A stretch of DNA of 63,996 nt, counting the filler, from Folioceros fuciformis (taxonomy: Eukaryota): the NCBI GenBank assembly GCA_049999805.1. It is 13 parts of 13 records of this genome, joined end to end, with 100 filler letters (N's around TTAATTAATTAA, not from the genome) between each part and the next. Parts side by side here need not be neighbours in the genome. Positions count along the whole stretch, not along the records: positions 1 to 28,382 come from JBNGIO010007223.1; 12 more parts are not named here. The stretch is one strand, 5' to 3'. Both the position numbers and the translations under genes were made by a program. The notes beneath the pieces were generated by a model. That model searched no databases, was not told where the DNA came from, and worked only from the letters and a program-made list of their open reading frames with translations. Below are positions 6,354 to 62,861 of this stretch, piece by piece (positions within the stretch are counted from its first letter, which is position 1; each line of letters opens with the position of its first letter).

Positions 6354-8069
6354 CTCTCCCTAGTTGCAGATTCCAGCTTGCTGTGATGGCGTCGATCTCC
6401 CACACTTGTCTCAACCTCATCCTCGATCTTCCTGGTGCAGAGGTGGAAGGTCGAAGTAGCAGAAGCAGGATGCTAGTAGTGGTGGAGCAGAGTCGTGCTA
6501 TCGGAATTGAGGAGCTCCCTCTTTGTGTGCACTGGCAATTGCGAAGGGAATGCTCACATAAAATCCTCTGCTCACCAGTCCAATGCCTTCAGTATGCTTG
6601 TCATGAAGTGGCTTGGGTAGGCCCTTTGTCAGCAGATCGGCGGTGTTGCCATTCGTGTTGATGTAACTTAAGGCGACTTGCTCATTGGCCACCACTTGCT
6701 GAATGAAGTGGTGCTGGATCTCCACGTGCTTGGTCCTTGCGTGCAGCACAGGGTTGAGTGTCATAGCTATGGCCGATAGATTGTCGCAAAATAGCTGTGT
6801 GGGCTGATTCTGGTCATCGCCTATGTCGTGTAGGAATTGCCTCACCCACTGAATCTCTTTGGCTGCCAACGTTGTTGCCGTGTACTCCGCTTCCGTTGAT
6901 GAAGTACAGATTGTTTGCATCTTCTTACACGCCCACGACACTGTACAGCCGTTGATGGCTGTGCAATAGGCTGCTGTAGATCTTCTCGCATCTGGATTTG
7001 CCGCCCAATCTGCGTCTGAGAACGAGATTAGAGTGAGCTTGGTAGAGCGGTCACATATGTAGAGGAGTCCAAAGGGCTTGGTCTTCTTTAGGTAGCGAAG
7101 GATGCGCTTGACGTAGGTCTAGTGAGCCTTCCCTAGGTTCGACAGATATCTGGATACCACATTCATAGCTTGTGCAACGTCGGGTCTTGTCTAGATTGAG
7201 AGGTAAAGTAGGCTGCCTATTGCCTCGTTGTATAGGATGGCAGACATCTCCATTGATTCTTCAGGTGTACTGGGTCAATCTGCTGTAGATACCTTCTCTC
7301 CTGATGCCACTAGAGTTGATACTAGCTTCGCGTCCTTCATGTTGAATCTCTCCAGCATTTGATTTACATAATGTTCTTGATGGATGAAGAAAGAGTGGTC
7401 CTCCTTGTTGTGTTCGAACTGTACCCCTAGTGCATACCGTAGGGGTCCCATGTCTACAACGTCATACTCCTTTGACAAGAGGTCTTTTACATACTTGATA
7501 ATCTCGGGACTGTCTCCAAAAGCGAAGTTGTCGTCAACGAACATTGTAGCTATCACGAACTTGTCCTTTGTTCTTAGAATGTAGAAGTTGGTGTCGGAGA
7601 TTGAGGGGAATGAAACCTCACTTCTTCATGTATGTGTCTACAGTTCCGTAGATTGCTTAAGTTCGTAAGTAGACTTGAGGAGTTGGCACACTTTTCTGCT
7701 GTCCTTGATGAAGCCTACTGGTTGAAGCATATACATATCTTCGTGTAGTGTGCCATAAAAGAATGCCGTTTTGAAGCATATAGGTATCTTTGTGTAGTGT
7801 GCCATACAAGAATGCCGTTTTTACATCTACCTACTGGATGTGTAGGTGATGATGGGCTGCAAAGGCTAGCAGGATCCTGATTGAGGTTGCCTTCACCACA
7901 AGGCTGAACAGTCTATTCTCCTCATAATCAAAGCCTAGTACCTGGGTGAAGCCACGAGCTACCAGCCTGGATTTGTATCTCGAAATAGTTCCATCGGGGT
8001 TGAGTTTTCTTTTGAAGGTCCATTTACAAGAGATTGTTTTGCGTCCAGCAGGCATGTCGGTGAGCTTCC

Positions 8070-10330: not shown

Positions 10331-12898
10331 TTTTTTTTTTGCGAAGAAAATAATTCTGATTATGAGTGGAAGACTCCTCCCACTTACAATACAATGGGAA
10401 CCCCCTGCTAACGAATGTACATATATCGAGCACCAAAAGAGAGGGGGGTGGACTAGCCTTAAGTCCAAAACTCAAGACAAGGCGCACAGAGAGTGCTCCC
10501 CTACACTATGGTACCCGCCACCTGCCTAAAACACTGATACTCACACTTCGAAGTCTCTCAAAGACCCTAAAGACTCACCTTCCCCAGGGGCACGAGTGGT
10601 TCCAACCCGTATCTTTCCCAAGCGAAAGGAAGCTGGCCATCCTCAAGTCTTTCCGCTTAAACTGCTTCCGGCGTGATTGCTCCAAGGCTTCTACTGCAAT
10701 CAATAAATGTTCCCATATGCGCCATAACAGAGCTTTCGCGGATGCCGGCTCCTGTCCTCCATAGACCACCGCGGACCAATTGACCCAGAGATAGAAAAGA
10801 CAAGAGGACCACAGTAAGCCCCACCATTGGGCCTTCAGGAGAGGTTTGCCCAAGGCTGCGTCCAGCCCAAATAAGGCTGACGGACTTGTGATCTTGAGGT
10901 TAGCTCCAGGAAAAATCAATCGAAGCCACCTGCCCACCTCCCCCCAGATCTCTTGGGCAAAGCAACAGTGAAAGAACATGTGTTGACTCTTGTTTGGGGC
11001 ACCAGCGGTGCACAATCGACACACATCCTCCCCCATTGCAACTAGAAGCCCATCCCAACGATCTGCATTAGGCAAACATGCTTGAAAGAAACACCAAACC
11101 ATAGACCTGACCTTGGGAGGGACTCCTGCAGAGTTCCATAGGAGCTTGATGGCTTCCTTTTGGCGCCATCTAGCTAACTGTAGTCGGGGAGCCATTGGTT
11201 GTCTTTGCTTGATTTTCTATGCTCGCACCAACCAAAGGAAAGGGTCCGCCGTTGGGAAGTTGAAAAACGATCGAGAAGTAGCCTTCTTGCACCCTGGATG
11301 CTTGGGCCACCTATAGAGATCTGGTCTGAAGGTTAGAGCCCAGTTTTCACCCAATCGGAACTAGCACAGAACCTTTGCTTTATTAGAGGTTTGTGGCCCA
11401 ATTGGGCGTTCGCCAGACGTGCACCACCGCCCTGCCCGAATGGACCTACGGATTACAGTTCTAGCCCGCAGTTCCCCCCCTTGGCCTTCACCGTCGTCCC
11501 TACCTTGCACTTCCAGAGAGCCGTCAGGCGACAAGACCTTGAACGACTTCAACATTTCTTTGCCGTCAGCTCTCGCAAGCCAAATCGCCTTATCTAGCTC
11601 TAATGCTTCGTCGTGTTTATCCTCCTCCTCTGAGTCGACTCCCCTACTACTATCCATGGAGTAAGCAAACCACCCTTCCTCGCCTATGGTAGGTTGTTGC
11701 CTTAGGATCTGATGCACCTTTTCCTCTAGCCCCTCGTGCAGCCACGAGAATATGAGTCTGACGTGCTGGGCCCCTACACCAAACTCCCTTCTGACCTCTT
11801 CCACCTCCTTCCAACGGGACTCTGATCAATTCCATAAATGCCCAAGCTGGATAACGCCTTTGCGACAAGCCAGCCCAAAAATTTGTGATCAATATACCCT
11901 TGACCTGAACTCCCGTACCCATAACCTCGAGAAGCCTTACAGAGGAATGCCCAGAACATCATTCAAATGAGAGGAGGTGCCCGGGATAAGATAATGTTTG
12001 ACCTCCAAGTAACTGTTCCAGATGGACTTAAAGAGCGAGGAGCATCCTGCAGTATCAAGTAGCGGTTTGTTAGCCAGAATGTTGTGAATAGACCTCCTAC
12101 CCCTGGGGACAGCTTGGGTGCCATCCAAGTGCTGTGTTAGCAGACTCTTCCAAGGGTAGTATGCCGGATCCGCTGCCCTAACAACCCATTGAACATGCAA
12201 AACTTTCATCTTGGCAACTGGGTCCACCACCCCTAGGCCCCCCATTCCACACGCTTGAATAATATGTTGCCAAGCCACTTTAGAACACCCAGCCATACCA
12301 TCCCCCAAACGCTTCCATAGGAAAGAGGTCAGCACCTGTTGTAAGCGCTTCACCTCTATTTTAGAAGGCGCCCACAAAAAACAGAAAGTACTATAAAGAG
12401 GCAATAAGGATATGGTTGATCACCACTAGCCTACCTGCCAAGTTGAGCTCCAGCAATTGTAAACTAGCCGCTTTGTGAATGAACCTGAGGCAGACATACT
12501 TCCCAATCTTCCCATTCTCCTCACCCTCTTGAAAGGGAAGTTCCAAATACTTGTGGGTAGAGCCCAAGGTCACTCGCTTGATGTGGTTAATACACTGAGG
12601 GGGTTCCCCCTCCATGTGAAGACACATCATGTGTGTCTTGTTCCAATTCACCTTGCAGCCCGAAAGTTCACCAAAAACCTTGACCTATTGGAGCAACGCT
12701 TTCAATGGAGCCTCCTCCATCAAGGAAAAGAGGAGCGTATCATCTGCAAATGCAGGGACCCTTAGTTGTGTTCCATCTGGGTTCCGAATACCCGCCACTG
12801 CCGGGTCCTACTTGACTACTCTGAGGAAGAAGTCAGTAACAATAATAAATAAGAATGGAGCAAGGGGGCAACCCTGACGTACCGACCAAGAGATGCCA
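10331..12898 (-). mobile_element. 5'-truncated non-LTR retrotransposon (L1 clade LINE) nested in copia A
   Basis: Poly(A) tail (T-run at about 10329-10340) and 15-bp TSD TGGGTGAGTCTTGTT (10316-10330, 12899-12913). RT motifs RQGCPLAPFLF and FADD, KVAW..GGLGV, and a C-terminal zinc finger (VPPKVRSMVW..CRLC..HMFFHC..W). Confidence 0.95.
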
Positions 12899-13869
12899 TG
12901 GGTGAGTCTTGTTGGGGTTCTCCTAATTGTTTCTTCCTGCATTCGTGCTCGTAGTGCCCAGGAATGCGGCACCAATTGCATGGGCCCTCCCCATTCTTCT
13001 TATGAGGCAGGCTGGAGTTGTTGAATCCTCCAGGTGATGACTGCTGGTCTGAGGATCTTTTGGCGGAGAAGCTCCCCCTACCTCTGCCTCATCTTCCTCC
13101 TTGGCCTCTAGAAGTAAAGAGGACGTGATTTGCACCTTGACTTGTGCGTGGATTGCTGGAGCAGCTGGATTCTTGCTCCACGAGTGCGCCAATGACTTTT
13201 GAGAAAGTGCCAGTTGGCGTGGCTCCAGCTGCAATTGCCTGAATTGCCTGTCTAAGAACCGAGTTCTTTGAACTGATGAATGTCTTGTATGACAAGGGGA
13301 GAGATGTTAGTAACGTTACGGTAGCCTGGAGCTCTGTGACAGTTGTGCCACAAGCTGCAAGCCTGGCCCGTGAGGACCTGAAGTTGTGTATGTGCTGTTC
13401 TACACTCTCATTCTCCTTCATTTTCAGCGTGTAGAAATGTCTTGTTGCATGTATAAGGGACATGGAACCTTGGGATTGGAACATGTCTTTGAAGCCTTCC
13501 AGATCCCGTGGGCTGTGGTCTACCCCTGTGTATGCTGAAGCATGGTTTTATCTAAAGCTGAGATGAGCAAATTTCTAGCCTTCTTATCTTTCTTATGCCA
13601 GGCAGCTATCAAGTCAGGAGTCGCCACAGGGGTTGTTGTAGTAGAGGGTGTAGGGAGTGTCCTATCGGTTATGTTATGTCCATGAGATCTTGGTCCTCAA
13701 GAAGTGCAGTTATGCGCATTTCCCACATGTCGAAGTCGGTTCCTGTGAAGCGATCACGGACGCAGAACTCGATCTTCGTTGTGTTGATAACTGTACCCAT
13801 TGCCGTTAGTTTCCTGAATTTTCTGAAGTGCGATTGAAGTGGATTGAAAGCGAGCATGTACTAACGACT

Positions 13870-14232
13870 CTAATGCCTAATGCTAAGATAAATCTTCTCT
13901 AATATGAAGTGGAGTGATTGGATTTGTGAGTCCAACTTTGTGATTTGGTTGTTGAGGTCTTCATGGGTGATGATGGCTCTCATTGGAAATAGGTTGGCTG
14001 AACGGTATCTGTGGAGGCGGTCGGAATCTACAGACATGCGGTTAGCAGAACGCTGTGAAGCCAGAGAGTGGGATCCCGTGTGGCTGGTTGGCTGAGTGGG
14101 GACCGATGCTCGACGAGACTTGAGGCCGAAGTTGCGGCTCATCTCTTTGATGCAGTCACCGCAAGTAAATTGCCGCACAGGAGGCGCTCTCCCCAAGGGA
14201 GAGTAAGAGGCCGGGGTGCGCCTTCTAGGCAT
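13870..14232 (-). CDS. Extra sense ORF between PBS and gag of copia A (basic N-terminus, heptad-like C-terminus)
   Basis: 120-aa ATG-initiated ORF, MPRRR...LNNQITKLDSQIQSLHFIL. Confidence 0.45.
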   Translation of the reverse strand: MPRRRTPASYSPLGRAPPVRQFTCGDCIKEMSRNFGLKSRRASVPTQPTSHTGSHSLASQRSANRMSVDSDRLHRYRSANLFPMRAIITHEDLNNQITKLDSQIQSLHFILEKIYLSIRH

Positions 14233-14362
14233 CTTGCTGATTTCATGATTGGCGTGCCGGATTGCCGCTCATCCGCTACTGCACCATCGATGAACTTGCA
14301 ATACCAGGTGTGTGGCGCGTGAGCAATGCCGAACGACAGTTGGCCCTTTGGCTCTAATACCA

Positions 14363-14594
14363 TAAAGCGGAGCAAGATGCTAGATTGAGCTATAATGATT
14401 AAAATGCTTAAGCAAGAACGTTGTACATATAATGTCTGGGATGCACTTGTAACCGCACTACTGTCGAGTGCTAGCGTAACTAGCAGAACTGCTCTTTAGC
14501 AACTAAAACATTTATCTACCTGTGCACGAAACGTGCCCTAATAACTCTTGGGTGCTAAAGCCCAAGCCGTGGCGCCACAATTTCTACTCCAGCA
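14363..14594 (-). repeat. 5' LTR of copia A
   Basis: Directly followed on the minus strand by a Met-tRNA PBS. Confidence 0.92.
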
Positions 14595-14599
14595 GGCTA

Positions 14600-15540
14600 G
14601 GCCTTTATAGACTCATACGCCTTCCATGTTATTGGTCCTTGACTTGCCTCATTCCCTTGTGGGCTTCACTTTGGCTTGCCCGTTCAAGAAATGCTCCTTT
14701 ATCTTTATCTAAAAGGTGCTTCTTAATCCTTATCTAGAAAGCTCACTTTTAGGGCACCTTTCATATAGACTAGTTTAGGGCACTCTTCATTAACTAATTT
14801 TGATATGTTGTAATAAACCACTTCTAATACTCCCACTCAACAAATCAAAATTAGTCCTTCAACCTAAGCATCTTGTTTTTGATGAGTGAGTTATGCTCGC
14901 TATCCAACGCTCTTTTCCACTCTTTTTCACTGTTCAATGTTTATGGCTCATCGGCCTCTGCTAACAAAGCCACTTCATACTTATACGCGTTTATGGACTC
15001 CAAGATCTTGTGCAAAGGTTTCCATCATCTGGTTGATCTTCTAAGTTGGATTGGTTGTTTCTCTTGGATTCTTCGATCTTGCTCCTCTTCATCATCTTCG
15101 ACGCTTCGAGTTTCTTCATCATCTTCGACGCTTCGAGTTTCTTCATCATCTTCGACGCTTCGAGTTTCTTCATCATCTTCGACGCTTCGAGTTTCTTCAT
15201 CATCTTCGACGCTTCGAGTTTCTTCATCATCTTCGACGCTTCGAGTTTCTTCATCATCTTCGACGCTTCGAGTTTCTTNNNNNNNNNNNNNNNNNNNNNN
15301 NNNNNNNNNNNNNNNNNNNNNNNNNNNNNNNNNNNNNNNNNNNNNNNNNNNNNNNNNNNNNNNNNNNNNNNNNNNNNNGAGTTTTTTCATCATCTTTGAC
15401 GCTTCGAGTTTCTTTACTCCTCTATTGTCTTGATGCCGAGGTTGCTCATGCTCCACAGTAGGTTGAGTTTGCTCCAGAGTATGTTGCTCAAGAACCAAGG
15501 CTAGAGGGACTTCATCTACACTAGATGAATTGCATCTAAC
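14600..15540 (-). mobile_element. Internally deleted copia remnant (IN-RT linker joined to PPT/LTR)
   Basis: RRSTR..EP*T..EWKRALDSEHNSLIKNK followed almost at once by PPT TTGAGTGGGAG and an LTR-like start at about 14829. Confidence 0.7.
15087..15412. repeat. 27-bp tandem repeat (encodes ETRSVEDDE on the minus strand), interrupted by a 100-N gap
   Basis: CTTCATCATCTTCGACGCTTCGAGTTT, 7 identical copies before the gap and 1 after. Confidence 0.97.
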
Positions 15541-15593
15541 GGTCATTTTCCATGAAGCCCGTTTGGTGTACATTTGAATTTACACCATCCTAA

Positions 15594-15766
15594 TCACATA
15601 TCCACATTTAAGCCTTTTTTTCAAAAACCACTTATATCGATGTGTGGTGGACATAATCGATATCCACACATTTGCTTCTAGTCACATATCCACATTTAAG
15701 CCTTTTTTTCAAAAACCACTTATATTGATGTGTGGTGAACATAATCGATATCCACACATTTGCTTC
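15594..15766. repeat. Two-copy direct repeat, 88-bp period
   Basis: 15594-15678 and 15682-15766 are nearly identical. Confidence 0.92.
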
Positions 15767-15984
15767 AAGCCCATAACCAAGTGGTACATAAACCCTTCAA
15801 ACTCCAAAACTTTGAGAAAAAAAGAAATCTTACTTTCAGTGCGCCGGTCTACTGGCGCCCTAAAGTGTGTGTTTGAAGGATAGGAAACTGGCTATCTGCA
15901 TCCCATGGATTTAAAAACAAAATAGTCAAATTTGTTCATAATCATAATATACCATCCACTTCCACTACTCTCAAAATCACCTTT

Positions 15985-17175
15985 AAACAAAAACATGAAC
16001 GTCTTGATTAGCGTCGGAATCGACTACAACATCTACGTCTTTAAGTCACTGGCCCTCTGTGTCTCCAAATTTATCCCCCTCCACATCAAGAATAGAGAAA
16101 TGCGGGTTGTCCACAATCTCAGGCGGAATTGTTCCATTCTGATCCCATATAGTCATAGCACAAAGGTCTTCCGCTGGTCTATCGTCCGATTGTGAAAAAA
16201 TCTCTCCTTTTTTTCCCAACAAACTGAATACCTGCATCTAACAATCCACGCTACCATCCGCGCAGACTTCTTTGGCCCAAAACTTCATAGGCGTGTGCGA
16301 GAAATGCTCTGTGAAGATCTCCTTATCAGAGTCTGGCAAAGAGCCTATGCCATTCACCCGCTGCATGATGTAAGAGGTACATCTTACATCAATATCCACT
16401 ACGACAACATGCCTTCCTCTTTGAATCGCAGACTGTAGAAATGGTGTAGATCTTGCGCAAGCATCCACTACCCAGTCCCCTTCAGCGGAGAACATATTCA
16501 CCAACATACCCATTAAACCAAGGGGCTTTTGATACGGCGAGACGACTAGAGAATCTGCCAAGTGGAACAAATGTTTCTTCACCACAGCACCATGCCTTAT
16601 AACTCTCGGAAGAAGGAATCCTTGATTCGTGAATAATGAAGCTTTTGTATCCTGAGCTTCAAAGTGAACTGCACTTCCAATAGTTAAATACTCGCTAGTT
16701 AAATAGTCTCTACTACGCCTGCATTGGGAGGTATGTTAGTCTTCTCCCACACTAAGGTCTGAATGGTTTCCTTCTTGCACCATGGCCGAAGTGCTTCCCT
16801 AGCCTGTGTAATCAGATCCACGCCATGCATGATAACCACCCTATACACATTATTGTTGGTGCATTCTGAAAACCCTCGAATCATGTCCTCAAGCTCTTTG
16901 CTTGTCAGCTGCCTGTCGTATTCATGTCGTTGCAATCCGCGAGGCAAATCTGCGAATAAGAGAGTATACGGCCGTTTTACCATAAATGCTTTCATCTCCA
17001 GAACGTTTCGATGGATAACTTGATACTTAGTTTTATTGTTACTGCTTGGGACTCCGAACTCCAATAATCTTGCATTCGTATCTGCATCTGCGAGTCTCTG
17101 CTTTTCCTCTTCCATGCGCTTCCAGTTTCTAGCAAAATACATAATCTTGAAAAGGCTTTGGCAATGCTTCAAGGT
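15985..17175 (-). pseudogene. Beta-class N4-cytosine/N6-adenine DNA methyltransferase (N6_N4_Mtase-like), disrupted
   Basis: In beta-class order: YQVIHRNVLE (motif III-like), LLFADLPRG (DPPY-type motif IV), LVWEK..EYLTIG, PYQKPLGLMGMLVNMFSAEGDWVVDACARST (HPTQKP plus motif X/I) and GRHVVVVDID. One frameshift near 16715, an in-frame TAG at 16238 before an acidic tail, and a CAG acceptor just upstream of 17175. Confidence 0.85.
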
Positions 17176-17352
17176 CTGTGATGTCTATTGGTTTCAGCCA
17201 AAAAGCATTTCTTTCAGAAAACCACACAAAAAGCAGAATCACAAATCAAGAACTACGTCACTCCAGCCTACATAAGGGAAAAATCACTTCTAATGACTAG
17301 AGTGCGCCGGTAGACTGGCGCACACCCTCCTCAATCTACACGNNNNNNNNNN

Positions 17353-18748
17353 GTCTTCTTGATGTGCATGTGGTAGGGTGTATGATATACAACAAGATTA
17401 TGACACCCAAGCTCTTCATCGAGTTTGGGAACATTTGAAACGATGGGAACCTAACAATATCAATTATTCAATGCGTGATACACGAGTATGACGGCCTCCT
17501 ACCTGGAGTTCTATACTTGTAGCTAGACAACACTGCACGGAAGAACAAAAACGCGTTGCTTTAGTGGGGTTCTTATTACTGGGCTATATGCACGACCAGG
17601 TAGATAAGATGTTTTCCAGGTTTTCAACGGCACTCGATCAGAAGGAAGCTTTGACTTTACCAAAACTTATTACAGTCACGCAGAATGCGTATACCCCCAT
17701 GCCAGACATTCATGAGGTGAAAGAGGTGTTGGACTTTAGAAAATTTGTGGCCTATATATAGTATGAGAAAGCAGGGTATCAGAATGTTGCAGCGGTTCAT
17801 TAGCTCCATAATATATCTTTTCAACACTAGTTCAAGATCACGAAGGAGAGCCGCGGAGATCGTGGATCTATTACATTGATGAGAGGAAAACAGTATTCCA
17901 CCCATCAATACTCGTTGCCTGATGACAGTATAGAATTTCTAAAACTAGTTCCGGATGGGGTTATGAAAGCCGCTCCACTGATGCATCTGTAGGTGAGGAG
18001 TAGGAAACATAAGACTATTATTGTCAATGCGCCAGGATATAACGTGTCGCATATTTGATCAAGGTTGGAGTGCAAATTACGGCATCACTTAGGTGTGGGC
18101 GAGGACATCTAGTGGGATTCATTTTGGGCAGAGCAAGAGGCCATCGATCAAATAATAAATCTGGGTGTGAAACAAGACCTCTTGTGGCCACGGCAATGGT
18201 ATAATCGCGATGTGGCAGAGTTGTTGAATACACCGTTACACGTGCCAAATACATTGGTGGTGGAAAACCCACGGATACAAGAAGTTCCTAAAAGAGACAT
18301 GTATGTGGGTGCGTATAGAAGAGAGGCTCATGTTCGCAACGACCGTGACAACTTTAATGGAGATGTATCAGAGATAGAAGCAGGGCACATGATTGTTGTC
18401 CCATGCGAGACAGACGAAGACAATAGGCCTTTTTGGATCACCAAAGTGTTGGACACACATAAGGACAATCACATTCAAAGTATCATAGTTCATTGTTGGA
18501 TCACCAAATGTTCAGATGCATTTGAAGGTCGATATCAAGAGGAGATGATATTGCCAAATGAAGAACCTCCCATGGGTTCTAGACAAGGACGAAAGTGACA
18601 GCCAAGCAGAAGACTTCAGAAGCATATTGACACACTTTCTATCGCGAATACGTTTATTTTAGCTTATGGATTTGTGTTGACTCGTCAAAAACAGCTGCAC
18701 GCTCGCACTCGAAACCTTATTAGAAAGAACTTGTATGTGCTTAAGTGA
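17353..18748 (+). pseudogene. Sola-like/DUF7869-like DDD transposase, C-terminal half, decayed
   Basis: LPGVLYL*LDNTARKNKN ... FLLLGYMHDQVDKMFSRFS matches the LQLDNxxxENKN..GHTHxxIDxxFS signature. Followed by a beta-rich domain (GHMIVV..RPFWITKVL..IIVHCW). Several stops and frameshifts; the 5' part is lost in the gap. Confidence 0.75.
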
Positions 18749-18946
18749 GATCAGGAAAATCCTCCAGATGTAATCGATGACCAACTTGCAAACACTTAGA
18801 CTATACTGGTTAAGTACTTTCATGTATACCACACTTCATATATATGAACACTGTTTGCAGAGAGCTGTGATTGGCTATTCGTAAGTGCATCACTCGAGTT
18901 GCCAGTTCTAGTAGTTCTCTGGTTAGCCGACGCAGATCTTGCAGGG

Positions 18947-19137
18947 GTGCGTAGATAGAGTGGCGCACTCGGCGCCTATGTGTGCGCCGGCCTACTAGCG
19001 CACCATTATGAAGGATTGTGTTGCACTTTCCCCAAGACCCTATCTAGATGTTCACCAGCTGATCAACGCCCTTCCTCAAGGAATGCGCCAATAGTCCCGC
19101 GCACTCCTTGAGGAAGTGCGCTGGCATACTAGCGCAC
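18947..19137. repeat. Cluster of four 22-bp imperfect palindromes GTGCGC-N10-GCGCAC (further copies at 15839-15860 and 17302-17323)
   Basis: Copies at 18947-18968, 18982-19003, 19083-19104 and 19116-19137. Confidence 0.85.
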
Positions 19138-19199
19138 ATATGCATAAATGGTCGAAATTGATAAAACCCCTCACATTTTCCAATTTTTAGTAATGCCGA

Positions 19200-22100
19200 T
19201 ATTGGAAATTTATCATCCCATCTAGCTCCAGCCGATTAATGATATATATAGTGCTGATATATGATTAAAGGGTTTATGCTTGATTTCAGATACGTTGAGT
19301 TATGGTTAAATAATTTATGGTGTCGTTTCGTTAGAGTTACAACTCCAACTGAAGAGCTACAACGTTTCACATTTTTAGTTTAATTTGTGCTATATTTTAA
19401 AAACACTTACTTCCTCTTTTCTAAGAACCAACTATGTAAATATTTTAATGAAATTAATTGTTTTAATTGCATTTACTTATATTTCATCATGGTATCAGAG
19501 CCATGCTTGTTGTTGGTTGTATTCAGATGAATGCATAATAAAATTGTGCATTAAAAAATATGCACAGTTTTATGTTTGTTTTCTTTTCTTGTTTTTGAAA
19601 TTAATTTTAATTTCAAGAAATATAATCTTTAAAAGAATGTTTTTCATTCTTGTTTTAGATTGATGAATTCATACAGAGTTTCCGCATAATCAGGTAGATA
19701 ATCTAGTGCACTTCCATGTGAATTAATATCAAGATCATTTCAATGGAGGCTCACTAGAGTAGCTGCCTGGCTGGCAGAATTGTATATTAAAAATTAAATA
19801 AGATAACAGACAATGCAGAGTTTCTGTATTTCATCATTTAGAAAATTCGCTGGTAATTATGGCCAATAATTATGGCCACCAGCGTAGGCGTCTGTGTCCT
19901 ACTAAAAGGATCCCTAGGGATGTATGATAGGGTGAATGTCGTTGATGAATTATCAGTTGTTCCCAACTTCATCAACGTGTCCTGCAGTGGATTCAAACAA
20001 ATAAGCTACAATTACTTTCGATAGCTGATTTAAAAATAGATTTTAATACTTTAATTGCTGCTATTTATCCACAGGAGACTGATTTGTTGTTTGATCTACC
20101 TTCACAAAGCTTACCAAATTTAGCAAGAGTATGTGCATAGATAAGCCCTGTAGGGAATTATCTCTGTGATTCTTCTTTTACCAAATCTGCCACACATATA
20201 GGTGTTAATACAATAATTCAACACCTTAAGACAAACAACAAAATTGTGGACAGACACTGTAATCAAATACAAGGACATTTATCTACAACAAGTGTGGACT
20301 TATAGGATCTGAAGGAACAAATTGCTCACGTGGACTGCAAGCTGGTTACGCTCTTGAGATCCAAGCAACCTATTATTTCGTCCTTTAGATCTGCATCCTG
20401 TAAGCATACCAATAAGATAAAACGTGATCGACAATTTTGCTCACCTGATTTATTTACATCTTGTTCCACAAGTACTTACAATGAAGGTGACAAGCGGAGC
20501 TATAAGAATGCTTCTAAAAGAGCAGTGCGAGGTCGAATCTTACAACATCAAAGACAACATGCACTGTGATTAGGAGTGTATGGACGGGGAAGATAGTGAT
20601 CTGGAAGGGGCAGAGCCTAATTCTGTACCACCTACACCCAACATGGGTGATACAATCTCATCATCAACTCTTAGTACAAAAACTTTCAAAGAAAAGGATA
20701 GATTTAATGGTACTGACTTTGATATTTGGCTTATCCGGATGGAGGGTGTCCTTGAGATGAGAGGACTCCTGAAATATGCAACCGGAGTGGTAAAGTTCCC
20801 TGGCGACAGAACTGCAGCAGGAGCATATTGGTTAGCTAAAGACAGCGTAGCCAAATACCTCATATGTAGTGGCCTAACATCTGACATGTTGAGGCAGACT
20901 TCAGGGGTAAAGACTTCAGCTGAGATCTGGACACGCCTCAAGGAACACTACGCAGGGCAAAATATGGTTAGTGCTATGACTGCTTTACGAAATTTTCAAA
21001 ATTTGAGAATGAGAGAAGGTGATTCAGTGGAGAAGCACGTGAATACCTTCAGGATCCTATCCTCAAGACTGGAAGGTGCTTCAAAAGTCAGTATGACTGA
21101 TAATGAACTGGTGATGAGGTTCATGCTTTCCCTTCCTGAATCCTGGTCTCATTTCGTGACCTCACACACTGCTGCTCAAACTCAAGCAGCACTTCTAGCT
21201 CACCAACAAGGAGTAGAATTGCCAACCATGTCTTTCTCACAGCTTGTTAGTTCCATGCTTCAAGAGGAAGCTAGCAGGATGACTCACAAGCGAGCACGAA
21301 AACAGCAGGCCTTGTATACCTCTAACCAAGGGAAAGGAGGTAGAAGATTTCCTCCAAAAGGAAGTGGTGGAAACTCTTCAAAAGCAGGCAGTTCGCAAGG
21401 ATTAGCCTCAACTGGAAGGAAGACAAAAAGGACAGGTGCCTGCAACTGGTGTAAGTTACCTGGTCACTGGGAACGTGAGTGTCGCAAAAAGCAGGCTGGG
21501 GTCCCTCGCAAGGAAGGATCCAGTGCTGCGACACATGTGGTGGTGAAGAAACAGAATACACCATCAGCCCTGACAGTCGGGACTAGAATGTTTTCAAGTC
21601 CACTGTTGCTTCCCATTTGTCTTTCTACAAAAGCTGATGTTAAACACACATTAGAGTGGTACTTCGACACAGGTGCCACTGCGCATATTTGTTTTAACAT
21701 AAATGCTTTTAGCACATACAGGTCTGTTCCATATCAGTGTGTCTACCTTGGAGATGACAGATCTCTTGTTGCACCTAGTCGAGGCACAATTGAGTTGAAA
21801 GTGCCTTCTGGCATCAAATTGCTTCTCAAGAATGTCTACTATGTGCCTGACATGACAAAATCTTGATCTCAGTCAAGCGTTTAAATGCTGATAACAACAG
21901 TCACGTTGTCTTCACTAGAACAGATTGTCAGATTGTAGATGCCTTTAACCCTAGGAAGGTACTTGCCTATGGATCTTCAGATCATGACCTGTTCCGTCTT
22001 CATCTTCATAGTGGACTAGCAGAGTCAGACCAGCCATCACCAATTGTCTCCTTGGCCTCTGCACAACAAGTTGAAAAATCAGAATTGTGGCATGCCCAGC

Positions 22101-57997: not shown

Positions 57998-60900
57998 TCA
58001 GTCATCCCTCTTCTTACGAGTAGCTTGGCTACTCTCCCCTTCCAGATAAGTCTGTGCTGATGTTTGCAATCCTAGTGTAGCTCGATGCTGCTCATGTATG
58101 GCCTTTGGTAGTCCCTTTGTCAGTAAGTCAGCGACATTCTCAGAAGTGTGAACATACTCCAACTGGATGACCCCTGTTTCTGCTGCTTGCCTGATAAAAT
58201 GAAACTGTATTTCAATATGCTTTGATCTGGCATGCAGTACTGGATTCGCTGTTAGAGCGATTGCCGACTGGTTATCACATTTCAACAATGTTGCTGAGGG
58301 CTGCTGCCAATGGATGCCGTCCAGAAATTGTCTGACCCATACTATCTCCCGTGCAGCTAAAGATAAAGCGCCATACTCAGCCTCTGTTGAAGAGAGGCTG
58401 ATGGTAGTTAGCTTCTTTGACTGCCAGCTGATGGCAGAACCACATAACAGAAGACAATAGGCTGCTATAGACTTCCTAGAATCAACATCTCCAGCCCAAT
58501 CAGCATCAGAGAAAGAAGTAAGAGTTAAATTCCCTGCTGCTGTGTATTGAATATAGAAGTCTTGAGTGCCTTTTAAATATCGTAGGATCCTTTTAACGGC
58601 CATCCAGTGCTTCTTACCTGGGTTGGCTAGGAAGCGAGAAACTATGCCTACTGCTTGGGACACATCCGGACGAGTCCATCCTGCCAGGTATAGCAGACTA
58701 CCTACAGCCTCTCTGTAAGAAATAGATGCCATTTCTGCAGTCTCTGCTGCTGTTTTAGGGCAGTCTTCTAAAGACAATTTATCACCTGTAGCTATAGGTG
58801 TAGTTACTGGATTGAGTTGTGAGAGGTTAAACTTTGACAGCAGCTGTCTGATAAAGTGAGCTTGGTGGATGGTGACGCAGGTCCTGTCTAAGCTAAAGCT
58901 AAATTGTATTCCTAAGGCAAACTTGAGAGGACCTACATCTGTCATGTCCCACTCCCGAGACAACTCCATCTTAACCTCTGTAAGTATTTGCTCATCACTA
59001 GCAAAAAGAAAATTATCATCTACATAAAGAGCTATTATGCAAAGCTGATTAGCACGTTTCAAAACATAGACACTACAGTCTGCTACTAGAGGTACAAAAC
59101 CTAGTTTGCGGAGCTTTTTATCTGCTCTTGAATTCCATATTCTAGCTGACTGTTTTAGACCATAAAGTGACTTGAGTAACTTGCATACCTTTGCAGGATC
59201 CTTGATATAGCCCTCAGGCTGATGCATATAGATAACTTCATCAAGAGGACCATTCAAGAAAGCAGTTTTAGCGTCCATCTGATGGACGATGAGCTTCTCT
59301 TTCACGGCATAACAAAGGAGGATTCTCATAGATGTGGGCTTGACTACAGGGCTGAATGTTTCGTTGTAGTCCAAACCATGAACTTGAGTGTAGCCCCTAG
59401 CTACAAGGCGTGCTTTGTACCGAGCCACCGAGCCATCGGGATGCAGTTTCAGTTTGAAAACCCACTTGGAGGTTATAGCCTTCCTGTCTGGTGGTAAGGT
59501 AACAAGTTCCCATGTGTTATTAGAAATGATGCTATCATACTCTGAGTTGATTGCCTTTTGCCATGCTGCTTTTTGAGGACCTGAGATAGCTTCCTGGTAT
59601 GTGACAGGTGTATTGGGTGGATCTAAAATGGAAGAAGCTACAGTGTTTGTAAAAGCTGCAAGGTTAGTATGTGGTAATGCGTGCTGTTGACTGGACGCTA
59701 GGGTATCCCCTGGCTCATACGGTTTTTCTAACCACTCAGACCTAGGACGATGGACCCTAGCTGACCTACGTAATACCTGATGCTCTGGTTCAGGTTCAGG
59801 CACACATTCAGGATGTGGAGGTACCTCTGCCATATCTTGTTCAGGTAATGTGGCATCAGTGTCCTGTGGAGCATACTCTGGATGATCTAGAACAGAGATG
59901 TTAGGTAAGTTGACGTATGGCTGAGGATTAGGAGCATGGATCTGTGGCAGTTGCTGAACAGTAGGAGTATCCGGAAAATCTGAAGGAAAAATGGCGATAT
60001 CTATGTCTAGCTGGTCGTCTTCCACTTGATTTGGCGGGGTATGGCCATAAACAGATTGTTCTGAAAGTGGCTGATGGCTTGTAACAGAGTGCTGATGTGA
60101 AGTTAATATGAAACTCTCATTGAAACTCACGCTTCGAGCTAAGGTAAGCTGCCTTGTATAGGGATTGTATAATTTGTATCCTTTAGATTGCTCGGAATAG
60201 CCTATAAACACATGTTTAGTAGCTCTGTTGTCCATCTTACCACGTTTGTCGGCTGGTATATATGCATATGCAGCGGCACCAAAAATGCGAAGATGACCAA
60301 TCCTTGGCTTATGTCCACACCAACGTTCAAAAGGCGTATAGGTGAACAAAGGTTTGACAGGTAAACGATTCTGCACATAATTCACTGCTGCTATTGCTTC
60401 GGCCCAATACCCACGAGTGAGACCAGCTGAGGACAACGTTGCCCTACAGCGTTCTTGCAATGTTCAGTTATATCTCTCAGCATAGGAGTTTTGTGCAGGA
60501 TGGTAGGGAACAGTTAACTGGTGGAGGATGCCTTTCTGTCTGCAATACGACTGGAAATCATAACTAAGGTATTCCTTAGCATTGTCACTTCTCAGCTTCT
60601 TCAAAGTATACCCAGTTTGTGTTTCAGCCATACTCACATAATCTAAGAAACTGTCATATACTTGCTGGCGTGTATGTAGGAAGTATAAACAGCAGTAATG
60701 GCTCCATTCATCAAGAAAAGTTAGAAAATAAACAGCACCACCAAAAGACGTTGTCGACATAGGACCACAGACGTCCGAATGCACGACATCTAACAAGCCA
60801 GTTGCCTTGGAAGGGTCAGGATCATTATAGGGCTTCTGGGCTAGCTTGCCAACTTGGCAATCTTCACAAAACAGGTGATCCCGAACTTTGAAAGAAATGG

Positions 60901-62404
60901 GATCTTTATACAACTCAGGTTTATTGACCACTTGGCGAATATATGTAACGCTAGGGTGGCAGAATCTGCTGTGCCATAAGAAACTGTTGTCTACATCGGA
61001 CTTCGCATCTACAACGAGACTGTGAGGATTGGCAGGGGTCATGTCAAAACGATACAGATCATTGTAAGTTACCCCTTCACCTAAGATAATTGAATGGTTA
61101 CGTGCAGACGTGACCAAGCAAGCTGTAGGTTTGAAGCAGATGTAGAGATCATGGTCTGTGACAAGCTTCCTAACAGACAACAGATTTTTGGTCATATTAG
61201 GTACATGAAGAACTCCAAACAACTGGATTTGCTTTCCTCCATTAAGTGGAAATAACACTTCTCCATATCCGGCTATGGATAAGCCACTATCATCCCCAAG
61301 CAACACAAACTGATTAGTCGGGGCTGAAAGATAAGTAACAAATTTTTCCCTTGATATACAGATGTGGTTGGTCGCCCCAGAGTCCAAAAACCACATGTTG
61401 TTATCAGCTTTTGTGAGGGATAGACAGACCGCTAGGATTGTAGGAGCCTTAACATTCTGTGTCACTGTGTTGCTTGCTTGCCCACGGGTCACCAGGTGAG
61501 ATTCAATAGGTGGGGCTTCTCGACGGGGCTCTCCAGCCCGTTTCTTCCTACACTCGTTCTCAAAATGTCCAGGGATGCGGCACCAGTGACAAGTGCCCTT
61601 TTGCTTCCGCTGGCCCTGTGATAAGGAAAGAGCTTGATAGGGACGGCCCCTACCACGTCCACGCCCTCTTCCACGTCCTCTCTGGGTATAGAGGACTTGT
61701 GAAGTCAGATGATGGCTACGTCCAGTTGCTGTCCTACTGGATTCCTCCTCCAAAAGTGCACCTACAATCTCTGAGAGTGTAATAGCAGGTGTGCTACCTG
61801 CTGATGGCGACTTCACTGTTTGCCTGAGAACAGAAGTTTGTGAGCTTACAAAAGCTTTATAACTTGGTGGTAATGAGGTAAGGAGAACAATTGATGCTTG
61901 CAACTCCGTTACATCTTGCCCACATGAAGACAACTTTGCTCTTAAGGTACGGAATTTGTGCACATGATGCTCTACGCTATCTGAATCTTTCATGCATAGT
62001 CCGTAAAAGAGTCTGGTTGCATTGAGCAGGGACATGGAGTCTTTCGCTGCAAACATGTCTTGGAACACCTTCCAAACAGCTGCTGAAGTAGCTTGCCCCT
62101 GTGTATGTTGGATCATATTTCTATCCAAAGCTGACAGGATGATGCTACGTGCACGCTTATCCTGTTTTACCCATGCTGCAATTGCCTCGGGTGTACATAC
62201 AGTTCCTCCTGCAGGTACAATTGCTGGATTTCCTGTCTTTCCAGTAACTAGGTCCATGAGATCATGTTCCTCAAGGATGGCTGTCAGGCGCATTTCCCAT
62301 ATGGGATAATCACTCCCATTAAACCGGTCTTTATCCTTGATATCGACCTTGGTGTTATTGTTGATGACAGTGTTTCCACTGCTGCTGCTTGATGCTCCTG
62401 ACAT
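57998..62404 (-). pseudogene. Copia gag-pol polyprotein with a single in-frame TGA (60464-60466)
   Basis: ORFs 60464-62485 and 57998-60460 are in the same frame and read ERYN*TLQER. All copia domains are present. Confidence 0.95.
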
Positions 62405-62504
62405 GACTGGCTGTTGTGGATTAGGGTTTCTAGGTGATGTGTGATTGCGAGGATCTCGAGGCAGCCTGTGTGGTGGGGACCACATACATGGTAGGATGCT
62501 GAAC

Positions 62505-62861
62505 CTACCAAACTAGATACATAATGTTTGAGGGGCTTGGGGCTCTTCCCCAAAAATGGTAGAGATTGACTCTAAAATCTGCTCTACAGGTTCGGGGACA
62601 ACCATTAAACCAAAACACAGGATCACAACGAGAAACCACAGCCACTTTTGGTGATATTGGTCTATCCACAAGGTAAGGTTCTAAGCTGGCTGAAAGTTGT
62701 TGTAATTTAGTGCTTAGAGTGCTAATCTGAGAATTGAGATAGGTTATATCTCTATGGTGGCTAACCTTATTATCAAATGCCTGGTCTTCAAGGAGTTCAA
62801 TTCTGTATATCAGGTGTTTTAGATCAACAGGGGATGGATTGGTCACAAATCGTGAGGTACA
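62505..62861 (-). CDS. Extra sense ORF upstream of gag in copia G (5' truncated by gap)
   Basis: LKHLIYRIELLE..LNSQISTLSTKLQQLSASL heptad pattern. Confidence 0.45.
   Translation of the reverse strand, partial: CTSRFVTNPSPVDLKHLIYRIELLEDQAFDNKVSHHRDITYLNSQISTLSTKLQQLSASLEPYLVDRPISPKVAVVSRCDPVFWFNGCPRTCRADFRVNLYHFWGRAPSPSNIMYLVW

Follow-up and report, generated by a model that had tools for sequence, protein, structure and literature searches.

The window, a 63,996-nucleotide stretch (filler included) of the draft assembly of Folioceros fuciformis, contains a methyltransferase (MTase) pseudogene and a transposase remnant. The two lie head-to-head on either side of a 10-N assembly gap and are accompanied by four copies of a palindrome (Table 1). 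Beyond 28 kb, the window consists of short contigs joined by artificial linkers.

Table 1 Features around the assembly gap of the window
Feature	Position	Strand	Evidence or remark
Palindrome copy 1 (GTGCGCCGGTCTACTGGCGCCC)	15839-15860	.	1 mismatch; ~190 bp downstream of the MTase frame end
MTase pseudogene, beta-class N6_N4_Mtase-like family	16046-17184	-	Frames, Pfam, alignments of relatives
Palindrome copy 2	17302-17323	.	Exact; ~120 bp upstream of the MTase frame, 20 bp from the gap
10-N assembly gap	17343-17352	.	Cuts the transposase at ~residue 383 of 888
Transposase remnant, DUF7869 family	17353-18750	+	Pfam, tblastn
Palindrome copy 3	18982-19003	.	~250 bp downstream of the transposase homology
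Palindrome copy 4	19116-19137	.	Within a 48-nt imperfect inverted repeat (19041-19088 / 19099-19146)

The original prediction placed beta-class amino-MTase motifs on the minus strand, and the quoted motifs are present there. The N-terminal MTase frame (16699-17184) contains FADLPRG, in which motif IV reads DLPRG, and the C-terminal frame (16238-16735) contains PYQKP..SAEGDWVVDACARS..GRHVVVVDID. Beta-class enzymes are recognized by motif IV (D/S-P-P-aromatic), followed by motif X and then motif I (FxGxG). This permuted order is retained in the window, where the motifs read DLPRG (IV), PYQKP (X), and DACARST (I), with the aromatic residue of motif IV absent and the glycines of motif I gone. Because the two frames overlap, we place a single frameshift near 16700-16735. 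An intron at this position is rejected, as the sole GT..AG candidate found by eye spans ~47 nt and the relatives are collinear across the site. There is one in-frame stop, TAG at 16238-16240, and the tail (16046-16237) continues the frame.

The second MTase piece matches Pfam N6_N4_Mtase (PF01555) with an E-value of 0.0021 and 18.5 bits, below the cut-off of 26.7. Likewise, an NCBIfam scan of the window gives a sub-threshold match only, and a PDB search with the single window MTase sequence gives weak matches only (E 0.59-1). Among 1.84 billion proteins, 53 relatives are found (best E 9.4e-17). Both window pieces align collinearly with them, and nine of the ten relatives scanned pass the PF01555 cut-off. 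The closest three full-length relatives (P0002, P0003, and P0007) share DLPRG with the window and have an intact motif I; we refer to them as the DLPRG clade. A protein search for named members of this clade returned only P0002 and P0003, neither of them named.

On the plus strand, positions 17492-17761 match Pfam PF25273 (DUF7869) with an E-value of 8.5e-15 and 55.3 bits, above the cut-off of 26. The head-to-head arrangement of the MTase with a DUF7869-like transposase, as originally described, is confirmed. The remnant is the C-terminal 55% of the transposase and equals residues 383-837 of an 888-aa intact relative; the transposase of the intact locus L018 detects it in tblastn with an E-value of 1.1e-47. 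In its 476 codons there are 10 in-frame stops, and the frame shifts at least once between 17555 and 17564. A PDB search with the single window transposase sequence returned nothing.

The gap was said to have taken the 5' halves of both genes. This holds for the transposase alone. The MTase homology begins at residue 35 of a 446-aa relative, so that the whole MTase domain lies left of the gap. The gap must conceal or replace at least 1.15 kb, corresponding to the transposase N-terminus, and would hold ~3.9 kb if the ParB-like exon of intact relatives (see below) is present. No match to the ParB-like open reading frame (ORF2) occurs anywhere in the assembled window; this ORF may be absent from the lineage of the window or may be located in the gap. 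Loose contig ends before 17353/17359 translate as ..PKD.., in agreement with the LPKD that directly precedes residue 383 in the intact transposase. The decay noted earlier is evident in both genes, with a frameshift, a stop, and a ruined SAM motif in the MTase, and stops and a lost N-terminus in the transposase. With both genes disrupted, motif I lost, and DLPRG, which lacks the aromatic residue, standing in for DIPYG, the window copy cannot work and is a dead relic without function.

The 22-bp palindrome GTGCGCCGGTnnACTGGCGCAC occurs at four sites, allowing up to three mismatches, and nowhere else in the 64 kb; the pattern has 0 matches in 100 shuffles of the sequence. It was reported on both sides of the gap, where we find it as well, and it is additionally present downstream of the MTase. 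Neither terminal inverted repeats nor a target-site duplication can be defined for the window copy. The flanks of a 14-nt inverted pair (15787-15800 / 19265-19278) do not match, and the terminus of the intact relative L026 (see below) is absent from the window at up to five mismatches. It could be that the window copy ends in the palindromes themselves. Contig joints from 15858 to 17297/17301 are rejected as deletion derivatives, as their 21-nt sides are the palindrome itself.

The stretch is repetitive in the source sample. In three runs of one sample, 723, 854, and 734 contigs match 15380-19400 at 85% likeness or more, most of them below 95%, and all 30 bins are covered. One presumed RNA run has no contigs matching the stretch, and another run, X3, looks bisulfite-converted.

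The accessory protein of intact relatives

An MTase-alignment scan of metagenome contigs yielded 289 candidate stretches, among which 127 are relatives, and 80 loci were kept. Named relatives are gene models from Ginkgo (at least five), the ferns Ceratopteris and Adiantum (one Adiantum model being fused with retroelement integrase debris), the liverwort Riccia, and Chara. Intact elements encode a spliced protein with a ParB-like domain at its N-terminus and the MTase as its C-terminal part, and the gene carries GT-AG introns. ORF2, which encodes the N-terminal domain, is 46-47% identical to the N-terminal part of Ginkgo Gb_37443. Its AlphaFold model has a pLDDT of 62.4, and the top Foldseek matches of the model are almost all ParB, Spo0J, Noc, KorB, or PadC. 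The ten best have probabilities of 0.82-0.98 (KorB and PadC lower), with a best E-value of 6.7e-3 and TM-scores of 0.25-0.44. These modelled matches are weak and suggest a ParB-like fold.

In 72 low-GC loci, motif IV reads DIPYG in 45 and DIPHG in 5, and motif I reads DLFSGTG in 49. DAPYG and DFPYG also occur among the relatives, giving the family pattern D-[ILAF]-P-[YHR]-G. The MTase exons of L018 and L026 pass the PF01555 cut-off as well. Between L018 and L026, amino-acid identity is 58% for the transposase, 58% for ORF2, and 58-63% for the MTase. The dN/dS ratios between L018 and L070 are 0.118 (transposase), 0.080 (ParB-like ORF), and 0.019-0.144 (MTase exons). All genes of the intact element are under purifying selection (dN/dS 0.02-0.14).

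Searched against solved structures, the MTase family profile matches M.MboIIA, M.RsrI, CcrM, and DpnA best (E 1.7e-6 to 7.6e-5), compared with an E-value of 1.9e-3 for an N4C enzyme. The first residue of motif IV in the family is D, not S. The motif and the best solved relatives point to N6-adenine rather than N4-cytosine as the predicted target.

Upstream of the accessory gene, the relatives have palindrome arrays. Across the 80 loci there are 67 dyad-symmetric palindromes of 17-19 bp, compared with 0.2 in shuffles. Of 30 informative loci, 19 have them at a distance of 50-800 bp upstream of ORF2. Variants of the arms are compensatory (TCGATGC..GCATCGA, TCGATAC..GTATCGA, and TCCGATGC..GCATCGGA). 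The 22-bp palindromes of the window are likely the counterparts of these putative binding-site arrays. They are unrelated to them in sequence and lie at the outer flanks and upstream of the MTase, such that a match to the divergent-promoter position of the relatives is not demonstrable.

It is possible, if unlikely, that the MTase-like protein of the window clade does not methylate DNA but has another role for the transposon, either as a DNA- or SAM-binding module without catalytic activity, as has been proposed for the inactive MTase domain of DIRS1 elements, or as an RNA MTase. DLPRG puts arginine in place of the aromatic residue of (D/N/S)PP(Y/F/W) in the window and its three closest full-length relatives, and the accessible part of a survey of these enzymes describes DIRS1 retrotransposons whose MTase domains are inactive, as well as N6A-MTases that have repeatedly shifted to RNA (Iyer, Zhang and Aravind 2016, PMC4738411). 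However, the sister clade keeps DIPYG or DIPHG (50 loci) together with DLFSGTG under strong purifying selection. In addition, the ParB-like fusion points to double-stranded DNA, and Pfam finds no RNA-binding domains in the scanned MTase relatives and intact elements.

Linkage and mobility of the two genes

The transposase pieces of the window match 7 of the 80 MTase-selected loci, even though the transposase was no selection criterion, and intact transposases used as queries recover the identical seven. Six loci (L018, L021, L026, L028, L067, and L070) have enough upstream sequence to be judged. In five, the transposase is divergent from the MTase gene, in the same orientation as in the window; the sixth, L021, is a truncated copy adjoining a short-chain dehydrogenase gene. 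This linkage comes from the sister DIPYG clade, which is 23-29% identical to P0002, and not from the DLPRG clade of the window. The intact DUF7869 transposases of 888 and 897 aa match the Pfam family with an E-value of 1.8e-52, and no second Pfam family is found in them at E ≤0.01.

In L026, terminal inverted repeats of 33 bp (180-212 and 7741-7773) match perfectly and define an element of ~7.6 kb. Its terminus, AACACYGGG..., also ends nine more copies with unrelated flanks. No target-site duplication is visible in L026, whose contig may join the ends of different copies. An insertion in L007 corresponds to an empty site in L006, L008, and L009, whose identity over the 300-nt flank is 99.7-100%; with one junction only, no target duplication is readable for this insertion. 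For the L018 lineage, a nine-copy alignment decays past the stop codon without a common end. The elements are also inserted into one another (L003, L051, and L007). Thus, in the relatives, the MTase and transposase genes sit together in an element that moves, and selection has preserved the cargo. The proposal of a cut-and-paste family with an amino-MTase cargo is upheld by the linkage, the terminal inverted repeats, the pair of occupied and empty sites, and the purifying selection in these loci.

Within the window itself, the adjacency of MTase and transposase rests on a 10-N scaffold gap. The two could be fragments of different repeats brought together by nested insertion or by the scaffolder, in which case the MTase would not be cargo here. 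In favor of such an accident, no contig bridges 17343-17352 among the matches listed (short contigs from sequencing runs), the neighborhood is patched together from copia elements and other repeats, artificial joins occur elsewhere in the assembly, and the nested insertions of the relatives provide a precedent. We nevertheless consider it very unlikely. Intact relatives of both genes lie head-to-head in unrelated metagenome contigs, and the linkage is very probably no scaffolding accident. In accordance, a palindrome unique to this stretch flanks the gap on either side, and the intact layout would place just the missing piece between the two genes. It is scarcely credible that the MTase is instead a domesticated streptophyte host gene, as MpDN4MT1 is in Marchantia, lying near transposon debris by chance: the annotated gene models named above would fit a host gene, but the copy in the window is a pseudogene, multiple diverged copies of the stretch occur in the source sample, Ginkgo alone has several models, one Adiantum model is fused to retroelement debris, and the motif is unlike the TSPPY of DN4MT1.

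Very probably, what lies around the gap is an incompletely assembled, dead member of a streptophyte family of cut-and-paste transposons that carries an amino-MTase as cargo.

Relation to known elements and proposed mechanism

The original prediction held the pairing to be undescribed, but comparable elements have already been reported. Sola1-1_Ec32 of Ectocarpus has a gene for a ParB-like domain and a DNA MTase on the strand opposite the transposase (Genome Biol 2025, PMC12477816). The window shares with this DNA transposon, as far as it is described in the accessible text, the accessory gene opposite the transposase. The ParB-like domain N-terminal to the MTase is present in the relatives and absent from the assembled window. 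Sola1-1_Ec32 is a 21.5-kb stramenopile element with a 1104-aa protein, whereas the intact relatives here are streptophyte elements of ~7.6 kb with a protein of ~900 aa. The label Sola, which the original prediction gave to the window transposase, is backed by analogy with this element only; our literature search found no mention of DUF7869.

In the genome of Bostrychia moritziana, PF01555-bearing accessory genes are found in Plavaka, Zisupton, Mutator, and Fanzor elements (bioRxiv 10.1101/2025.02.11.637652). According to the accessible part of that preprint, the red-algal Plavaka (EnSpm/CACTA) elements resemble the family here in being DNA transposons with a PF01555 methylase (PAG2) and a ParB-like protein (PAG3), and in having tandem inverted-repeat arrays that adjoin the ParB-like gene. 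PDB 7BNR is the best structural match of the ParB-like part both there and here. Peculiar to Plavaka are MTase-SET and ParB-like-2OG oxygenase fusions, encoded by separate genes in elements of 17-19 kb with another transposase. In contrast, the ParB-like domain and the MTase of the streptophyte relatives form one protein, and the transposase is of the DUF7869 family. The window element is a streptophyte member of a transposon kind already described in algae. No description of such elements in land plants is found among the matches listed, and the supplements of the algal papers may bear on novelty.

A ParB domain also occurs together with an amino-MTase in the ParB-terminase locus of phages and plasmids (PMC4738411). 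These ParB-MTase genes, as presented in the accessible sections of the survey, differ in being prokaryotic, intron-less, and outside eukaryotic transposons. The same sections list few N6A-MTases in land plants, and the present family is not among them. As a lead only, PF01555 MTases of tailed phages make up the large protein-language-model clusters nearest to the intact MTase of the plant clade.

The bdelloid N4CMT is a host gene for a beta-class amino-MTase of prokaryotic type with the motif TSPPY (N4C). MpDN4MT1 of Marchantia is likewise a host gene with TSPPY (bioRxiv 10.1101/2021.02.12.428880, in its accessible text). Both resemble the present family as prokaryotic-type beta-class amino-MTases in eukaryotes. 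The comparison with them drawn in the original prediction is not supported at motif IV, however, as the window reads DLPRG and the transposon-borne relatives have D-x-P-Y/H/R in place of TSPPY. More distantly, DNMT-bearing retrotransposons (de Mendoza et al. 2018, PMC5890265) and fungal KDZ/Plavaka elements with TET/JBP genes (Iyer et al. 2014) are transposable elements that carry DNA-modifying enzymes, but, from the accessible parts of these papers, the enzymes (C5-MTase and dioxygenase) and the element classes are others.

Bounded by short terminal inverted repeats, an intact element encodes a DDE transposase of the DUF7869 type (~890 aa) and has a divergent spliced accessory gene, whose product joins the ParB-like N-terminal domain to a circularly permuted beta-class amino-MTase (DIPYG ... 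NPYQKP ... DLFSGTG). We propose that the ParB-like domain, by binding the palindromes, recruits the MTase to the DNA of the element itself. The MTase may then write N6-methyladenine, or less likely N4-methylcytosine, on the element, and this self-methylation would perhaps counter silencing or mark the element. Self-binding and self-modification are likewise proposed by the authors of the algal examples, for the accessory protein of Sola1-1_Ec32 (PMC12477816) and for the red-algal elements (bioRxiv 10.1101/2025.02.11.637652). A further-reaching account, which we offer tentatively and think on the whole unlikely, is that of an old streptophyte transposon lineage (Chara, liverwort, ferns, and Ginkgo) in which the ParB-like domain, acting on lineage-specific palindrome arrays, delivers an N6-adenine MTase. 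The DLPRG clade would then be a derived branch whose catalytic aromatic residue was replaced, which perhaps lost the ParB exon and two introns, and whose function changed.

Transposons with enzymes able to rewrite epigenetic marks on their own DNA are rare. ParB-MTase transposons, reported so far only in algae, are now found in streptophytes as well, among them land plants (Ginkgo, two ferns, and a liverwort). Strong purifying selection maintains the cargo, and palindromic arrays that co-vary lie alongside it. A single protein and a single DNA motif make a testable system for asking whether a eukaryotic transposon marks itself with 6mA. The system also bears on whether such enzymes contribute to the amino-methylation signals reported in plant genomes. 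If the account of a self-methylating lineage is true, land plants would have their first amino-MTase 'writers' encoded by transposons, which could be one source of the 6mA signal that is disputed in large plant genomes.

The window copy and its surroundings

The window is eukaryotic and rich in repeats, with copia-type gag, protease, integrase and reverse-transcriptase frames flanking both sides of a methyltransferase (MTase) gene and a transposase frame. As predicted, the MTase motifs FADLPRG, PYQKP and GRHVVVVDID are present on the minus strand, the plus-strand frame matches the transposase family DUF7869, and a 22-bp palindrome lies on either side of the 10-N gap (17343-17352). The palindrome occurs at only four sites within the window (0 in 100 shuffles), 120 bp upstream of the MTase frame and in both outer flanks.

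Features of the window and how each was recognised
Feature	Position	Strand	Basis or remark
MTase-like gene	16046-17184	minus	two overlapping frames
MTase frame with ..YTLLFADLPRG.. and ..VWEKTN..	16699-17184	minus	translation
MTase frame with ..SPYQKP..FSAEGDWVVDACARST..GRHVVVVDID..	16238-16735	minus	translation
In-frame TAG of MTase	16238-16240	minus	frame continues beyond, to 16046
Transposase	17354 to ~18750	plus	single frame, DUF7869 match E 8.5e-15 (Pfam)
Palindrome GTGCGCCGGTnnACTGGCGCAC, 22 bp	15839, 17302, 18982, 19116		pattern search
Copia-type element	57998-62512	minus	two long open frames
Copia remnants	8.5-11.2 kb	minus	
Copia remnants	20.6-24.9 kb	plus	

The transposase frame contains 10 stops in 476 codons. 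The expected N6_N4_Mtase (PF01555) match of the window MTase falls below the Pfam cut-off (E 0.0021, 18.5 versus 26.7 bits), whereas 9 of the 10 relatives scanned pass it; its best PDB matches, both weak, are the beta-class enzymes M.RsrI and TTHA0409. The 5' halves of both genes had been placed in the gap, which is shown for the transposase only. Contig loose ends right of the gap, read upstream in our own translation, give ..PKD.., in agreement with the LPKD that immediately precedes residue 383 in the intact transposase of relatives, indicating that the gap cuts this gene. The whole MTase domain lies left of the gap, because both of its pieces are collinear with relatives, the alignment starting at residue 35 of the 446-aa protein P0002. 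The gap hides at least 1.15 kb, or about 3.9 kb if the ParB-like exon of relatives is present. Searches with the relatives' sequences give no ParB-like match in the assembled window, and none of the source-sample contigs listed bridges the gap.

In three runs of one sample, 723, 854 and 734 contigs match the MTase/transposase stretch (15380-19400). Those of run X1 match the window at ≥99% (111), 95-99% (132), 90-95% (257) and <90% (223). In the source sample the stretch is a repeat with many diverged copies. Contigs of run X3 on 15380-19400 show hardly any differences from the window other than blocks of G>A or C>T changes, a pattern that a bisulfite- or enzyme-converted library would give; the 5mC state of the repeat family could be read from X3.

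An 88-bp unit immediately left of the first palindrome is tandemly duplicated (15590-15765, 97% identical); it may be a separate repeat, since the summed contig depth is high there in the source sample. A 27-bp tandem array (15059-15414, at least eight units, six identical) contains a 100-N gap (15279-15378) and is open in several frames, e.g. with ..EETRSVEDD.. repeats on the minus strand. The two long frames of the copia-type element encode 682 aa (gag-protease-integrase) and 821 aa (with reverse transcriptase); this element is apparently much younger than the MTase/transposase element. At 12 places in 28383-62961 the window carries N44-TTAATTAATTAA-N44, in which TTAATTAATTAA is a six-frame stop linker, so adjacency across these joins is meaningless; from 28 kb the window is a draft pseudo-scaffold of artificially joined 1-9-kb contigs.

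The MTase family

Among 1.84 billion representative proteins, searched exhaustively with HMMER, 53 are relatives of the MTase at E 0.001 or better (best E 9.4e-17, 40-48% identity). The family has named members in Ginkgo biloba (at least five gene models), Ceratopteris richardii, Adiantum nelumboides, the liverwort Riccia sorocarpa and Chara braunii. The family motifs run in the order [hydrophobic]4-D-[ILAF]-P-[YHR]-G, NPYQKP and D-x3-G-[ST]-G. The motif of MpDN4MT1 is TSPPY according to the available part of its report (bioRxiv 10.1101/2021.02.12.428880), indicating that the two families are separate. The best matches of the family profile are the N6-adenine enzymes M.MboIIA, M.RsrI, CcrM and DpnA (E 1.7e-6 to 7.6e-5), against 1.9e-3 for an N4C enzyme.

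DLPRG is common to the window MTase and its three nearest full-length relatives. Motif I is intact in these DLPRG-clade relatives and reads DACARST in the window, indicating that the window copy has decayed past its clade's state. Of 72 low-GC metagenome loci, 45 have DIPYG, 5 have DIPHG and 49 have DLFSGTG. MTase genes of the DIPYG sister clade (L018, L026, L070) have two introns, after ..GLTW and after ..FSGTG; both sites are read through, with introns absent, in the window and in DLPRG-clade relatives.

Intact relatives and their accessory protein

Metagenome contigs were scanned with the MTase alignment alone, the transposase pieces being no part of the scan. Of 127 relatives in 289 candidate stretches, 80 loci are kept, and 7 match the window transposase pieces: the DUF7869 piece in six of them at E 1e-15 to 5e-18 (45-48% identity), and the C-terminal piece at E 1e-10 to 2e-12. 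Two loci encode intact transposases of 888 and 897 aa (DUF7869 E ~1.8e-52), which recover the same 7 loci and align with the window over residues 383-837 (E 1e-47). Most of the 80 contigs end before the transposase; six have sufficient upstream sequence. The transposase is divergent from the MTase gene in five of these (L018, L026, L028, L067, L070), bearing out the predicted pairing, with L026 and L028 counted as a single lineage at 96% identity. The sixth, L021, is a truncated copy adjoining a dehydrogenase gene.

In intact relatives, an open frame of 566-573 aa lies between transposase and MTase, on the same strand as the latter. A Ginkgo protein that runs on into the MTase matches the C-terminal half of this frame with its own N-terminal part (46-47% identity). 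Canonical GT-AG introns connect the frames in L018, and two of these introns fall within the MTase domain. Pfam and profile scans of relatives and accessory frames give no ParB match by sequence. The region's AlphaFold model is moderately good (pLDDT 62.4), and ParB, Spo0J, Noc, KorB or PadC account for almost all of its Foldseek matches down to about rank 30 (ten best, probability 0.82-0.98; best E only 6.7e-3). Therefore, the cargo is a single spliced ParB-like–MTase protein. The window copy is a genuine but dead member of a transposon family with this accessory gene. Between L018 and L070, dN/dS is 0.118 for the transposase, 0.080 for the ParB-like frame and 0.019, 0.023 and 0.144 for the MTase exons. 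Transposase, ParB-like frame and MTase are alike 58-63% identical between L018 and L026, which fits long co-descent.

The L026 element is bounded by perfect 33-bp terminal inverted repeats (180-212 and 7741-7773), and its type of terminus ends 9 further copies with different flanking sequence in each. The insertion in L007 starts exactly at such a terminus, and the site is empty in L006, L008 and L009 (L007 3280 versus L009 4240, L008 3576, L006 2753). The inserted end (AACACCGGG...) follows ..GGTATAA in a copy of another lineage, within the 3' region of its MTase. The insert has at least six palindrome units at ~2 kb from the end and is possibly a non-autonomous derivative. The neighbouring transposase pieces of L003 (3937-4052) and L051 (4012-5964) begin mid-gene. 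That of L003 starts directly after an element end, which suggests a member nested within the transposase gene of another; L051 is probably a similar insertion into another copy. In L052 (2051-8802), a LINE (DUF4283, endonuclease, RVT_1 and RVT_3/RNase H frames) separates the ParB-like frame from the 3' MTase match of one copy, which we read as split by its insertion. Downstream of the L018 MTase gene, a 4.5-kb block (10960-15500) of ~140-nt units, direct and inverted and 74-91% alike, may represent a different repeat or a subterminal array belonging to the element itself.

A 17-19-bp dyad, TCGAT[G/A]C-N3-G[C/T]ATCGA, recurs in intact relatives (1-8 copies each); the 80 loci together contain 67, where shuffled sequence gives 0.2. 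It is situated between the divergent genes, 50-800 bp upstream of the ParB-like frame, in 19 of the 30 loci that are informative. Its arms change in step between lineages (GC..GC, AC..GT, or added C..G), which argues for a putative protein-binding dyad. The window palindrome differs from it in sequence and partly in placement; we infer that it is the counterpart of these dyad arrays.

Relation to known elements

The pairing, for which the original prediction knew no description, is already published: in the available part of PMC12477816, Ectocarpus Sola1-1_Ec32 has a ParB-like/DNA-MTase accessory gene on the strand opposite the transposase, as in the window and five of the six informative relatives. 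The Sola superfamily had no Pfam model in 2017, according to the accessible text of PMC5751038. In Bostrychia Plavaka elements, as far as the accessible part of the preprint describes them (bioRxiv 10.1101/2025.02.11.637652), PAG2 combines PF01555 with SET and PAG3 a ParB-like domain with a 2OG oxygenase, inverted-repeat arrays adjoin PAG3, and PAG2/PAG3-type genes also occur in Zisupton, Mutator and Fanzor elements. Methylase and ParB-like domains are thus on separate proteins in Plavaka, whereas intact relatives of the window element have them on one spliced protein.

The available part of Iyer et al. 2016 (PMC4738411) lists few N6A-MTases in land plants, the window family not among them, and we find no land-plant description of ParB-like–MTase transposons in the main texts searched. 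Such elements are known in algae; across streptophytes they appear to be undescribed so far. The MTase may serve to mark its own element: in the proposed mechanism, the accessory ParB-like–MTase protein would modify the element's own DNA.
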